Shown: positions 58,360 through 63,984 of the stretch, one piece after another | Layout of the letters: each line of letters opens with the position of its first letter | Numbering within the stretch: position 1 is the stretch's first letter | Sequence record: OL770107 | Length of the DNA: 64,000 nt | Direction: 5' to 3' (one strand) | Source of the DNA: Escherichia phage CLB_P2 | Notes under the pieces: model-generated | The model's input: the letters and a program-made list of their open reading frames with translations, nothing else | What the model was told of the DNA's origin: nothing | Databases searched by the model: none | Position numbers and translations under genes: made by a program

Positions 58360-59133
58360 TTAATCATCTAAAAAAGCATCATCAAATGCTGTAGGAGGAG
58401 CATCTTCTCCTCTACCATTAATCACCACATAAGGATGTACGAATTCCGCTGCTTCAGCATTAATCTCATTAACCTCTTCATATTGGATATCAGAGATATC
58501 AGCCAACCCGTCGATATTTTTAACAGGCATTAAATCAAGCTCACTGAATTCAGGAATATTAATACCTTCATTTCTCTGTAATTCAGGACGAAGTTCTTCA
58601 CCATTATAAATGAACTTGGTAGCAGTAATACGACGCTGGACGTTTGTACCAACTTGATAGAACGGGTCGTAAGGTTGAACCCAATTAATTTCAAATAGAC
58701 TGTTGTCCATAGGGAAATAAATCAAGTCACCTGAAACAGGTTCAGTACCATTGCATTGATGTTTAAAAAGGTTAGGGTTAATTGTGATTGTTACTTCATC
58801 ATTAACCATCATACCGAACTTACTGAAATAAGTATTGTCACCGGAATAACCTTCAAAGGAATCTAAATAACCTGCAAACTTCCAGGCTTTAGTAAATTTG
58901 TTCTGAAGGTCTTCGCCAAATAGCTGGTCTGGTTTAACATATTCACGTGGTATATAATAAAGCTCGATACCACGCATTTGAATAGACTCAGCAACTAAAG
59001 CATCAGCCAATGTTTGGGTGTTCTCATGGCGATAAAAGTTGACGAATGGGTTCATTATTTCAGTTTCGTTCGTGTTAGCATAGCCAGTATTATCTTCTAG
59101 CTTAGCGAATAAACTCGAATCGAAAGTAGCCAT
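58360..59133 (-). CDS. 14: neck protein gp14 (257 aa)
   Basis: T4 gene order and size. Confidence 0.85.
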
Positions 59134-59135
59134 AA

Positions 59136-60068
59136 TTATCCAATTAAAATAGGTGTTGGTGGGTCGAGCAAATCTAATTCTTCACGAAGACGTTCTTTTT
59201 CTAAACGAGCCTCTTCAATCAATCGAATACCATCTACAGTGGTTCCACCTGCAAGTTGCATGCCTTGGTGTTTGGCTAGAATATTGCCATTGACTTCTTT
59301 AACCAATGCAGTGGCATAATCTTTAACCCAACGGTTATTATATGCACCGTCCTGAAGGCCGAGGTCCTCGCCTACGCGCATACCGGAAATACGACGAGAT
59401 GGGTTATCCCAAATAGCACCTGGGCTCCATTCGTTTTCACCACAGGCCGAAGCATAACCATAGCCTACGGTATTTCCAACCATAGAATCAACCCCATTAA
59501 AAGAACGAGTATAAACTTCGATTACAATAAAATCGCCTTTAACAAAGTTACCCATTACCTTCAATTGTTCAGTGGCATCGTTATACCAATAATCTGGTAG
59601 TGGAACCAAAAGGTCCTGCATCATAGAACGATATTGCATTAGCTGCGTAAAATAACCAAGGTCGGCGCCGAAGGCATTAGGTCCGAAACTGTTACATGAA
59701 GACCCAAGCCCACCATTAATACCAGCTAAGCCTAATACAAAATCTGTAAACCAGGGATAAGTTGCTTGCCCATCCATAGATGTTAAAGAACCAACGTTAG
59801 TTCTCAAAATTTGTGTTACTGCAAATATATTACGTCCTTTAAGGTCGAATACACCATTACGGAATTTTTCTTCATCGTCGTGGCCGATATAAAAAGCCTG
59901 ATATCCTTTGTTATACCCGTTATAATGGTATTCACCGTAGAGCTCTAGAGCACGCTGGATGCAATCATATACTTGGTCTGTAGTTACTTCAATATTTGTA
60001 ATCGGTGCACCCAGGCGGCGCAGAATAGCGTCCTTGAGTTGCTTAGGGTTGAATGATTCGCTTGCCAT
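59136..60068 (-). CDS. 13: neck protein gp13 (310 aa)
   Basis: T4 gene order and size. Confidence 0.85.
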
Positions 60069-60089
60069 ATTTTATTCCTCTAATAACCG

Positions 60090-60097
60090 TATTTATA
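60090..60097 (-). promoter_or_regulatory. late promoter TATAAATA for gene 13
   Basis: Plus-strand TATTTATA about 22 nt upstream of the gene 13 ATG. Confidence 0.5.
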
Positions 60098-60100
60098 GCA

Positions 60101-60123
60101 AAAAAGGGCCGAAGCCCTTTTTA
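60101..60123 (-). terminator. terminator after wac
   Basis: GC-rich hairpin (GGGCC-GAAG-CCC) flanked by AAAAA and TTTTTATT. Confidence 0.5.
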
Positions 60124-62442
60124 TTATGGTGCTGAGTTTAAAGTCACAAAATCAGACAATAATACCCATGCGTTATCAACCAGAACGTACGGGAGTCCGT
60201 CTGCAGCAGGAGCCACCGGCGGACGTTTAGCTAATTCTGTTTCTAAGGCTGTAATTTTACCTTCGGCGGCGGTTAAACGGGTTCCTAAATCGGCAACTTT
60301 ATCAGATTCAACTTTAACTGCGGCCAAACCTGTTTCAAGAGTACCAACTTCACCTTCAACAGCGGCTAAACCAGACTCAAGGGTGGTTATTTTACCTTCT
60401 GCCGTAGTTATTTTACCTTCTGCCGTACCTAAACGGGTATTGATTCCTGCCACTTTGTCAGATTCAACTTTAACGGCAGCCAAACCTGTTTCAAGGGTAG
60501 TTATTTTACCTTCAGATGTACCTAATCGAGTATCAATTCCTTCTACTTTATCCGATTCAACCTTAACTGCGGCTAAATCGGACTGAAGGGTAGTTATTTT
60601 ACCTTCAGCTGTTGTTACACGAGTTGTTAAAGGAGCTATTTTAGCGGTATCTAATTTAATATCAGTAATTTCGCCTTCATTAGCTGCTACTCGCCCGGTT
60701 AAAGTAACGATATCACCTTTATTCTTGGTTATATCGGCTTTAATAGGGGTTAATTGTGATTCTATAGAACTCACATCTAAAGCCAAAGCCGTAACATCAG
60801 AATCGGTTGTATCCGTCTTGGTTTCCAATGCGGTTATTTTGCCATTAATAGTTACGTCACTTTCTTCCAAAGCAGTAATACGATTATCTTGCTCAGTGTC
60901 TTTGGATTTTAACAAAACAACATCGGCTTTAATTTCTCCTACTGAAGTGTTTAAAGCACCAGTTCTGGTATCAAGAGAAGAAATGGAGGCGTCATTAGTA
61001 TCGACTCTAGCCGTTAAGGCTGATACCTTACCATCAGTAACCAATAAAGAAGCTTTTACTGCATCGATTTCTGTAGTACCATCAAGGATTTCCGTCCATG
61101 CCGAATCCTTACGTCCATACAATTTACCATCAGTAGGTGCTTCACCCAATTTAGTAGGCATCTGAGCTTCAAGGCCTTTAACCGAGTTTATTAATCCTCG
61201 TTCTTCTACGGTACTACCGTTAGGGTTGGTTCCTTCAATTTGGTTGGTGATTTTAAGAATAGAACCTTTGATGCCTGTTTGGTTATTACCAATTTCGGCC
61301 TGCAAATCCTGAATAGTAGAGGCTGAAGTATTGCCTTGAGTTGTAAGGTCGTTCAAACGTTTATTGATTGTTCCTGCTGCCGGACTCACATCCGCACCGA
61401 TTTTACGGTCTATATCAGAAACCTGGAAACGAAGCCCTTCAGATGAACTAGCACCAACTATGGTTTTTAACTCATTAACATCAGTACGCAAGCCACCCAA
61501 TCTGCCGTTAATAGACGTAGGGGTATCGGCAGTACCGATGGCAGTTTCTACTGCAGTAACCCTAGGGACCAAACCATTATTAACAGTGTTTTCTAAAGTA
61601 GACGTTTTAGTTTCTAGTGTAGTTACTCTGGTATCAATAGAGCCCTTATTAAAGCCTATACTGGTTTTGATAGAATCTATCGATTCATTAAAGTTTACGG
61701 CTGCCGTTTCGAGAGCTGAAATTCTAGTATAAGCAGGTTGTTTACCTACCGTATCAATATGTGGACCAAGTTCTTCACGAATTTCGTTAAGTTTAAGCCC
61801 AAGTTGACCTACATCAGAATCTTCATAATTCTTTTCAAGGGTATCTATACGTTGCGAATGGTCGACAATAGCACTGGTATTATCCATAATACGACGCTTC
61901 ATACCGGTGGCTTCAGAAGTTTCACCCGGAGGAAGCGGCTGGCTGTTTATATCTTGGTTTGCATAATGACCAATTTCTGATTTAAGAAGATTTATATTTT
62001 CTCTAACAGTGAGATACGGGCCATCTAAAGACGGGTCATAATAACCGACATCTTCTTCTAAAAAATTAAAATTAACTGTTAAGTCGCCTAAGTCCTTTTT
62101 AGTCTCGGAAGCCTTTTCATCTACAGCCAATATATCGACACGGTTCTTTTCAATTTGCTGAATAACAGCCGTATCAGTAGAAATATCAAGGGCTTCATTA
62201 ATCAAATTAACGTTATCCACAAGCTCGTTAATTTTGTCTTTAGAAGCTATGCTGTTTTCTTCTAATCTAACTACGTTAGTTTGTACTCCTAAAGCAGGGG
62301 CATTCAAATTACCGTCGTGACCGTATTTAGTCGTGGCTCCTTCAATACATTCACCATTGCGTATCCAACGGATACGCTCTTGGGATGCATCAGGTACACC
62401 ATCGACAAACGGAAGTTCTTTAATACTCAGTTTGTCAATCAT
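60124..62442 (-). CDS. wac: fibritin (neck whiskers), extended 772-aa form
   Basis: Long coiled-coil protein between genes 12 and 13 with a foldon-like C-terminus (DGLPYVLVDNAWVLLSDF); internal tandem repeats. Confidence 0.9.
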   Translation of the reverse strand: MIDKLSIKELPFVDGVPDASQERIRWIRNGECIEGATTKYGHDGNLNAPALGVQTNVVRLEENSIASKDKINELVDNVNLINEALDISTDTAVIQQIEKNRVDILAVDEKASETKKDLGDLTVNFNFLEEDVGYYDPSLDGPYLTVRENINLLKSEIGHYANQDINSQPLPPGETSEATGMKRRIMDNTSAIVDHSQRIDTLEKNYEDSDVGQLGLKLNEIREELGPHIDTVGKQPAYTRISALETAAVNFNESIDSIKTSIGFNKGSIDTRVTTLETKTSTLENTVNNGLVPRVTAVETAIGTADTPTSINGRLGGLRTDVNELKTIVGASSSEGLRFQVSDIDRKIGADVSPAAGTINKRLNDLTTQGNTSASTIQDLQAEIGNNQTGIKGSILKITNQIEGTNPNGSTVEERGLINSVKGLEAQMPTKLGEAPTDGKLYGRKDSAWTEILDGTTEIDAVKASLLVTDGKVSALTARVDTNDASISSLDTRTGALNTSVGEIKADVVLLKSKDTEQDNRITALEESDVTINGKITALETKTDTTDSDVTALALDVSSIESQLTPIKADITKNKGDIVTLTGRVAANEGEITDIKLDTAKIAPLTTRVTTAEGKITTLQSDLAAVKVESDKVEGIDTRLGTSEGKITTLETGLAAVKVESDKVAGINTRLGTAEGKITTAEGKITTLESGLAAVEGEVGTLETGLAAVKVESDKVADLGTRLTAAEGKITALETELAKRPPVAPAADGLPYVLVDNAWVLLSDFVTLNSAP
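60270..60620 (-). repeat. in-frame tandem repeats inside wac (about 93-nt units plus a 21-nt tandem duplication)
   Basis: Repeated nucleotide unit ...TTATCAGATTCAACTTTAACTGCGGCCAAACCTGTTTCAAG... three times; encoded motif EGKITTLE.GLAAVKVESDKV; GTTATTTTACCTTCTGCCGTA occurs twice in tandem. Confidence 0.7.
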
Positions 62443-62451
62443 TTTATTTCC

Positions 62452-63984
62452 TTAAGCAACTTTAATAATGAATAGGATGGACATAGTCCAAGGACGGTTT
62501 TCGTTACCAATTAACCCTTCACTGTTTAGGGTAGTTCTTGAATCTCGTGAACCGGAACCGTCAATTTCGTATCCTTCGTTTGTAAAGTAAGAACGGTTAT
62601 CCCAGTCTAATCCTTTACGAGTACCGGCAAAGTTGGAACGAACAGTGTTACCAAAAGCACCTGCGTTATCATGTTCACCAAAACCACCTGCATGTTTATG
62701 GAAACGAAGTTGTTGAGCTTGTACTGTACCGTGTCCATATGAACCACAACCTACACCTAATTTTGGTTTGCCTTTGGCGTCGTTACCTTTGGCGTCTCTA
62801 ATTCTAACGTTGGCGTCCCATTCTTTTAATCCACCGTCATTAGTTTGGTTTGCACCTCTAGGATATAATCCACGGAAGTCAGGTCGAGCGCCAGTTGAAC
62901 CCCATTTACTACCAACTACATTTCGGAATCCTTGCTCACCAGAGTTACCGCCATCACAAACGGCCCAACCTGCAGGGATATTGTTAATTTGGCCTCCCCA
63001 CATAACGATAGTACCAATAGGAACAGAATCTTTTAATTGGTCGACAGTAACAACATCACGCCCATTACGACGTAAAGTACCGTTAACGTTTAAAGTACCA
63101 TTAATAGTGCCGCCGGTGGTAGAAATAACGTTAGCATTATATGCCAGTGCTGTACTTCCGTCTCCAGAACCTACGGTGGTGGATAATTTAACAACACCAA
63201 CCCTTCCGGTAGTACCAGTACGAGAAAGAAGAGTTGAAGGAGATAAAGCTATATTAGAATCACTGCCTGCAGAAGCTTCTTGCGGAGTGGCTAATCTAAT
63301 AATACCTGCACGTGCTTGGGTGGAAGTTAAGGATTTTAATCCAGAAGGAGAAATTGCGACACCATTAGTCAATGTGCCATTTGCCACTTCAGCATTTGTC
63401 GCGATTCTAACAATACCTTCGGTAGTTTGTGTTGCACTTGCATAAGTTGGTAAGGCCGATGTAGCGGCTCCAATTGCCTGTGCGGTTTTAAGAGGCGTCA
63501 TAGCCGTAGTATCATCTGTACCCGCTAAAGCCGCTGGCAAGGTTGAAATCTTGAGTACGCCTGTAGTGTTCTCTGTGGCTAAACGATTAGTGAATGTATA
63601 ATCTATAGTAGCCTTCAAAGATGATGCTACGATTGCAGCCTGGGTCTCTGTCCCAGCGATGGCCTCGTCATTAGTGGCATAACGGGTGATACCTACATAG
63701 GTTTCAGTTGCTTGAGTAGGAATGTCCAAGCGGCCTTTTAAAGTTGCCGGGGTCACAGCAGAGAAAGTATCAGTGCCATCAATAACTTCTTGTTGGGTGG
63801 CTAATCTAATAATACCTTGTTCGGTTTCAGATGCGGCCGGAATATCACCTGTAACACCTATAGCAGAAATGGACGATAAGGCGTCTTGGACGTTGGTAAT
63901 ACTAGGGTCAAAATTCGACCCGGTAGGGTCGAATGTTTTAAATTCCGATTTATCACTTATATGTTTTAGTGTATTTGTAGACAT
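62452..63984 (-). CDS. 12: short tail fibre protein gp12 (510 aa)
   Basis: Match to remembered T4 gp12 (KFDPT..NF.P.IT.VQ, TAMTPLKT, C-terminal GFGE.D.SGAFGNT.RSNF.GTRKGLDWDNRSYFTN.GYEID). Confidence 0.93.
   Translation of the reverse strand: MSTNTLKHISDKSEFKTFDPTGSNFDPSITNVQDALSSISAIGVTGDIPAASETEQGIIRLATQQEVIDGTDTFSAVTPATLKGRLDIPTQATETYVGITRYATNDEAIAGTETQAAIVASSLKATIDYTFTNRLATENTTGVLKISTLPAALAGTDDTTAMTPLKTAQAIGAATSALPTYASATQTTEGIVRIATNAEVANGTLTNGVAISPSGLKSLTSTQARAGIIRLATPQEASAGSDSNIALSPSTLLSRTGTTGRVGVVKLSTTVGSGDGSTALAYNANVISTTGGTINGTLNVNGTLRRNGRDVVTVDQLKDSVPIGTIVMWGGQINNIPAGWAVCDGGNSGEQGFRNVVGSKWGSTGARPDFRGLYPRGANQTNDGGLKEWDANVRIRDAKGNDAKGKPKLGVGCGSYGHGTVQAQQLRFHKHAGGFGEHDNAGAFGNTVRSNFAGTRKGLDWDNRSYFTNEGYEIDGSGSRDSRTTLNSEGLIGNENRPWTMSILFIIKVA

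Follow-up and report, generated by a model that had tools for sequence, protein, structure and literature searches.

Escherichia phage CLB_P2 carries an unusually long gene for fibritin, the protein of the neck whiskers, and the locus raises the question of when and how that length arose. The window analysed here is a stretch of 64,000 nucleotides (nt) from sequence record OL770107. Its wac gene encodes 772 amino acids (aa), compared to 487 aa in phage T4 (open reading frame (ORF) list; PDB 2bsg_A). An initial annotation had noted this length together with three 93-nt (31-aa) tandem units and an exact 21-nt tandem duplication; it took the units for near-identical copies and proposed a recent expansion of the coiled coil that lengthens the whiskers. 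The lengths and the duplication stood up to analysis and the recent expansion did not. Our preferred reading, to which we give a probability of roughly 0.85, is that CLB_P2 wac is an ordinary Dhakavirus allele of the type known from phage JS98, that its spacer array is old and inherited and not newly expanded, and that its nearest relatives are deletion derivatives.

The repeat structure of the gene was far beyond chance. At a lag of 93 nt, 128 of 186 positions matched, compared to 70 ± 3.5 (maximum 79) in 200 codon shuffles, and the longest exact lagged run was 23 nt, where the maximum in 200 codon shuffles was 15 nt. At 60404-60612, Tandem Repeats Finder (TRF) detected 2.2 copies of a 93-nt period, with matches at 81%, and a repeat finder placed three in-register copies at spacings of 93 and 156 nt. 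Three full units (U1, U2 and U3) share the motif EGKITTLExGLAAVKVESDKV. There are three, as first described, but they are not strictly contiguous: U2 and U3 are separated by 63 nt of partial-unit material, made up of a 7-aa duplicate and a 14-aa half unit (h14). The 7-aa duplicate is the product of the 21-nt duplication, which TRF confirmed as exact and which adds one heptad (duplicated TAEGKIT, aa 673-679). A truncated fourth unit follows U3 and was kept in all alleles, including the 514-aa form of phage AnYang. On the opposite strand, an ORF of 177 aa (60053-60586, +) runs across the repeat region, and its translation is rich in VILPSAV/TLSDSTLTAAKP repeats. It is probably no gene, arising instead from the repeat and the codon composition.

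The units differed considerably from each other. Nucleotide identity was 80.6% between U1 and U2, 73.1% between U2 and U3 and 66.7% between U1 and U3, with 6-10 synonymous codon differences per unit pair. Closer positional counterparts were found in other phages. U1 was 90% identical to U1 of ESCO10, compared to 81% to its best paralogue in its own gene. U2 was 89% identical to U1 of ESCO10 and 86% to U1 of IME341, compared to 81% to U1 of its own gene. The difference was largest for U3, which was 94% identical to U3 of JS98 and 90% to U4 of IME341, compared to 73% to U2 of its own gene. The best identity that a unit reached inside the CLB_P2 gene (73-81%) was in each case below that to counterparts elsewhere. 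Copies made in a recent expansion should be closer to each other than to orthologous copies, and the 93-nt units showed the opposite pattern. Because each unit is closer to a counterpart in another phage than to the other units of its own gene, the array is best dated to before the divergence of the compared phages, and its units are best described as old paralogues. The near-identity of the units, on which the idea of a recent expansion was built, was therefore not upheld.

Comparison with the two closest relatives suggests a direction of change. The allele of dhabil (720 aa) is the CLB_P2 allele minus 156 nt in a single in-frame gap, with its breakpoint inside a 17-nt tract (GTTAAAGTTGAATCTGA) common to U2 and U3. 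The allele of dhaeg (689 aa) is the CLB_P2 allele minus 249 nt, likewise in a single in-frame gap, with its breakpoint in an 8-nt tract (GATAAAGT) common to U1 and U3. Each otherwise differs from the CLB_P2 gene by 8 substitutions, 7 of which are shared. The units that remain in dhabil and dhaeg are U2/U3 and U1/U3 chimeras of CLB_P2 units. Identity between the two dhabil units is just 72%, too low for dhabil to be a fresh duplication of dhaeg. The simplest reading is that both alleles are deletion derivatives of a CLB_P2-like allele.

The 21-nt duplication is shared as well. A set of nine alleles had suggested that it was private to CLB_P2, and this was overturned when a 70-nt probe across the junction matched Esco_phi_B-01 and Ec2-ASingh at 97% identity. 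One base separates the two 21-nt copies of Esco_phi_B-01. The half-unit junction of h14 recurs in UP19 (P0007) and in Esco_phi_B-01, and the Esco_phi_B-01 allele (827 aa) also has the full order of U2, 7-aa duplicate, h14 and U3. Identity along the Esco_phi_B-01 gene (L011, OP292222.1, locus 268-2751) was uneven: about 73% to CLB_P2 over nt 1-1350, and 93-100% over gene nt 1500-2319. The switch lies shortly past an internal foldon, described below, and UP19 is similarly mosaic. The mosaicism of these two alleles suggests that the distal module has been exchanged between lineages, and the distal coiled coil and foldon appear to move as a cassette.

Alignment to T4 fibritin located the greater part of the extra length. 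Residues 5-432 of the T4 protein are collinear with wac residues 6-430 (phmmer, E = 2e-73). The match to Pfam Fibritin_C, the fibritin C-terminal region, is internal in wac (aa 373-452, profile positions 4-90 of 93, E = 3e-22), and T4 foldon residues 455-478 align to wac aa 427-450, the stretch KLGEAPTDGKLYGRKDSAWT. Taken together, the collinearity, the internal Fibritin_C match and the foldon alignment indicate that wac residues 1-452 correspond to nearly the whole of T4 fibritin, ending in a foldon-like motif. Short fibritins of 455-459 aa have their terminal foldon at about aa 434, the position of this internal motif. Residues 453-772 are best described as an appended module, formed by a coiled coil of about 285 residues and a second foldon. 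The terminal foldon-like sequence is PVAPAADGLPYVLVDNAWVLLSDFV; the C-terminal 41 aa matched foldon-containing chains almost exclusively among the 60 PDB matches listed, and residues A, P, D, G, Y, V, D, W, L, L, S and F of this foldon were invariant in 16 homologues. An AlphaFold2 model, computed as a monomer of aa 400-772 with 16 homologues (mean predicted local distance difference test score (pLDDT) 76), placed hairpins at aa 442-451 and aa 752-761, on either side of a single continuous helix that spans aa 455-738. The repeats do contribute length, as the initial annotation held, but they supply only some 130 of about 285 extra residues, and the excess over T4 is mainly the appended module, an architecture found throughout the genus.

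The two foldons differ in their details. In the T4 foldon, Glu5 and Arg15 form an inter-subunit salt bridge. The internal motif of wac retains the residues that align with this pair and is without the WVLLSxF tail. The terminal foldon has Val and Leu at the positions aligning with Glu5 and Arg15, and of the two motifs it is the only one that keeps the tail. From these residues, the two foldons look to be specialised differently.

Heptad analysis divided the spacer between the foldons into two parts. The register was unbroken over aa 446-612; the non-repeat spacer gave a Fourier peak at 3.5 residues and a pLDDT above 90 within the predicted helix. In the repeat region the register shifted by -3 once per 31-residue unit, and hydrophobic periodicity was 3.44 residues, which is 31/9. 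This shift and periodicity suggest that one unit is built of four heptads plus a 3-residue insertion, or stammer, a build that would make the units structurally interchangeable. There was no register shift across the 7-aa duplicate or the 14-aa h14 insert, and all inserts observed are thus predicted to preserve coiled-coil phase. Loops between the units, like those of the T4 shaft, were considered and found unsupported given the clean 3-residue phase shift per unit and the continuous AlphaFold2 helix, although on this question a monomer model carries little weight. The non-repeat spacer also matched tail needle proteins: 60565-60948 (aa 499-626) matched tail needle gp26 (PDB 4lin_A, E = 2e-7), and a shorter stretch, aa 592-648, matched PHROG 1219, 'tail needle protein' (E = 8e-14). 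The likeness could stem from a common ancestry of trimeric coiled coils or from composition alone. The matches to the P22-type tail needle gp26 and to PHROG 1219 were not adopted as homology and, like those to other coiled-coil Pfam families, were treated as compositional.

Allele lengths were compared across Dhakavirus phages and related metagenomic proteins. Lengths of 514, 515, 529, 652, 689, 718, 720, 734, 737, 749, 751, 768, 772, 799 and 827 aa were found, and the polymorphism between relatives is real. Every allele was in frame and retained the terminal foldon. Long JS98-type alleles with a common C-terminal tail measured 689, 720, 734, 737, 751, 768, 772 and 799 aa. The length steps among these were combinations of 31, 17, 14 and 7 residues, starting at aa 604-611; the remaining alleles differ elsewhere too. 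The AnYang-type fibritin of 514 aa keeps both foldons with about 25 residues between them, and at the other extreme the spacer of Esco_phi_B-01 (827 aa) has about 340. Several records carried misleading annotations. The wac genes of ESCO10 ('phospholipase') and CLB_P2 (UNI73301.1, 'hypothetical protein') are corrected here to fibritin, and the metagenomic homologue P0014 was mislabelled 'Zn-ribbon protein'. The annotated start of IME08 wac lies 23 codons too early and overlaps gene 12, giving 822 aa instead of 799 aa.

These features place CLB_P2 wac within a known type. In JS98-type fibritins two foldon-like motifs are joined by a coiled-coil spacer, the length of which varies, and JS98 fibritin trimerises on its own (Letarov & Krisch 2013, PMC3797505). 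CLB_P2 wac has two T4-like foldon motifs per chain, a variable-length coiled-coil spacer between them, the conserved N-terminus and shaft, and the location between genes 12 and 13. The homologue records examined in detail were from Dhakavirus, as is the JS98 type. The array of JS98 wac (751 aa) is made of the same units, 3 in number, and no difference in kind was found; in CLB_P2, 3 units are accompanied by a half unit and a duplicated heptad. At the level of sequence, CLB_P2 wac has every feature of the type. The architecture and the variability of the spacer are already published (PMC3797505) and the gene is already deposited; the 31-residue units, the breakpoints and the mosaicism of the distal module were not found in that paper. 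A literature search for CLB_P2 together with fibritin found nothing specific. Latypov et al. reportedly dealt with the JS98C3 fibritin in 2007.

We propose that the CLB_P2 whisker runs from a neck-binding domain through a T4-like shaft and a foldon-like motif into a parallel coiled coil of about 285 residues and a terminal foldon. The last 130 or so residues of this second coiled coil would be the old array of 31-residue units. Copy number would change where different units have short identical tracts, through slippage or unequal homologous recombination; changes would be in frame and in whole heptads or units, so that the terminal foldon would be kept. What the alleles displayed was that units are gained and lost, in frame and with phase preserved, at short tracts that they have in common. 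By analogy with T4, the product would be a parallel homotrimeric whisker that helps with attachment and retraction of the long tail fibres. A spacer helix of about 284 residues would add about 42 nm to the T4-like shaft, of which about 4.6 nm would come from each unit and about 1 nm from the extra heptad; the whisker would thereby exceed that of T4 by roughly 40 nm.

Other explanations of the array were weighed against this one. The best placed holds that spacer length is adaptive and rapidly tunable, with copy number selected to set whisker reach; such reach would serve to fit the knee of the long tail fibres, to tune the sensing of the environment or to touch the surface of the host. Many distinct lengths occur in very close relatives, all indels keep frame, heptad phase and terminal foldon, the distal module is exchanged between lineages, and T4 fibritin controls the retraction of the tail fibres (PMC3797505), all of which would agree with selection on length. 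However, neutral unequal recombination filtered by the foldon frame alone predicts the same pattern, and the nearly spacer-less 514-aa alleles are common and viable. We consider selection on length possible but rather unlikely. A recent expansion in the CLB_P2 lineage that just lengthened the whiskers is much harder to sustain. The exactness of the 21-nt duplication and the greater length of CLB_P2 compared to its two closest relatives are in its favour, but the shorter relatives' units are chimeras of CLB_P2 units, the duplication or the half-unit junction is common to Esco_phi_B-01, Ec2-ASingh and UP19, and longer alleles of 799 and 827 aa exist. With units 67-81% identical, many synonymous differences and a closer counterpart for each unit in another species, we judge it improbable. 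An artefact of sequencing or assembly, to which the repeat structure or the length might in principle be due, can practically be set aside, because although 93-nt repeats can be mis-assembled from very short reads and the 100%-identical database record is probably the same phage, the exact 772-aa protein occurred on 6 contigs, one of them from an independent Logan assembly of SRR19268272, the divergence of about 20-30% between units allows unambiguous read placement, the layout with the 21-nt duplication recurs in independently deposited phages, and all alleles are in frame with the terminal foldon.

Several points weigh against an old, inherited array with deletion derivatives as its nearest relatives. 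The longer alleles could instead have gained units by import, through recombination with another phage, and the direction of change was read by parsimony on a handful of genomes. All 6 contigs with the exact protein may stem from repeated sequencing of one laboratory phage. The AlphaFold2 model is monomeric, and its confidence in the repeat region is modest (pLDDT 60-73).

Features of the wac gene of phage CLB_P2 (positions in the 64,000-nt window)
Feature	Residues	Position	Strand	Remarks	Evidence
wac (fibritin, neck whisker) ORF	772 aa + stop codon	60124..62442	-		ORF list
Conserved N-terminal domain	1 to about 50	62293..62442	-		Aligns with T4 fibritin N-terminus
Proximal segmented coiled-coil shaft	about 51-427	61162..62292	-		Collinear with T4 shaft
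Internal foldon-like motif	428-452	61087..61161	-	KLGEAPTDGKLYGRKDSAWTEILDG	Pfam, T4 alignment, AlphaFold2
Non-repetitive spacer coiled coil	453-610	60613..61086	-		Heptad analysis, AlphaFold2
Repeat unit U1	611-641	60520..60612	-	TAEGKITTLQSDLAAVKVESDKVEGIDTRLG	Segmentation
Repeat unit U2	642-672	60427..60519	-		Segmentation
Exact 21-nt x 2 tandem duplication		60386..60427	-	Encodes AEGKITT twice	TRF, 2.0 copies, 100% identity
Half unit h14	680-693	60364..60405	-	TAEGKITTLESGLA; without last 17 residues of unit	
Repeat unit U3	694-724	60271..60363	-	Conserved last full unit	
Truncated fourth unit	725-741	60220..60270	-	AAEGKITALETELAKRP; leads into foldon	
C-terminal foldon and tail	742-772	60127..60219	-	PVAPAADGLPYVLVDNAWVLLSDFVTLNSAP	PDB matches, AlphaFold2, conservation

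The identity of the gene is supported by its own matches and by its surroundings. The ORF matched PHROG 1056, 'fibritin neck whisker' (E = 5e-196), and was 100% identical to that of Dhakavirus CLBP2, the exact protein being UNI73301.1 of phage CLB_P2. It is flanked by a gp12-like short tail fibre gene (62452-63984), in which gp12 domains were detected, and by gp13-like (59136-60068) and gp14-like (58360-59133) neck genes, the latter matching the Pfam family of T4 neck proteins. The gene 12 and neck-gene context of fibritins was thus present, as were the N-terminal domain and a segmented shaft homologous to that of T4. At the N-terminus the alignment to T4 fibritin begins at residue 5/6 (LPFVDGxP...RIxWIxNGE); in T4 this domain attaches the fibre to the neck (PMC3797505). 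Heptad registers in the shaft were segmented over aa 44-418 and changed every 30-50 residues, the pattern that a segmented coiled coil should give.

A scan of the window for the T4 late-promoter consensus found none immediately upstream of wac, which only 9 nt separate from gene 12. The only consensus nearby (TATAAATA, 60090-60097, -) precedes gene 13, within the 55 nt that lie between this gene and wac. There were 16 T4 late-promoter sites in the window, compared to 7.1 expected. Eleven were on the minus strand, and 10 of these lay between 46 and 60 kb.

Comparison with other fibres sets the CLB_P2 array in context. T4 fibritin (gpwac, 487 aa; PDB 2bsg, 1aa0, 1avy) has the N-terminal domain, shaft, foldon signature and gene context in common with CLB_P2, but it stops at a single foldon; in CLB_P2 the equivalent foldon is internal and is followed by 320 residues with a second one. 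RB43-type fibritins have 1 or 3 Ig-like domains, and the fibritins of EcS1 and CHI14 have 5-6 tandem foldon-like motifs. From PMC3797505 and the sequences, these resemble CLB_P2 in the gain or loss of modules beyond the ancestral foldon position; they repeat a globular domain or foldon, whereas CLB_P2 repeats a coiled-coil unit. In Escherichia phage EcS1 (P0038, 607 aa) and Serratia phage CHI14 (P0042, 584 aa), the five or six motifs (xAPxDxKxYxRxxxxW) lie about 29-32 residues apart beyond aa 436 and form an array of trimerisation knots. Streptococcal M protein also has in-frame coiled-coil repeats, the number of which is changed by unequal recombination, altering fibre length. M proteins are dimeric, bacterial and shaped by antigenic selection; their likeness to wac is in the in-frame coiled-coil units that vary in number, with no homology.

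The importance of these results is modest and lies mostly in phage structural biology. Beyond the published architecture, the variation of the spacer resolves into interchangeable 31-residue units that contain a stammer, the recent changes in the nearest relatives can be read as deletions at mapped short tracts, and the distal module appears to have passed from lineage to lineage. The relatives also offer a near-isogenic length series that can be used to probe the role of whisker length. It is conceivable, though we hold it to be more doubtful than selection on length in general, that the 31-residue stammer units serve as a natural ruler of length, with selection on their number setting the reach of the distal foldon. 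If so, dhaeg (1 unit), dhabil (2), CLB_P2 (3.7) and the 514-aa alleles would be a ready-made experiment on the part of whisker length in tail-fibre retraction or in sensing of the host. It would follow that the internal foldon keeps the T4-like contact with the tail fibres and that the distal module has a separate role.

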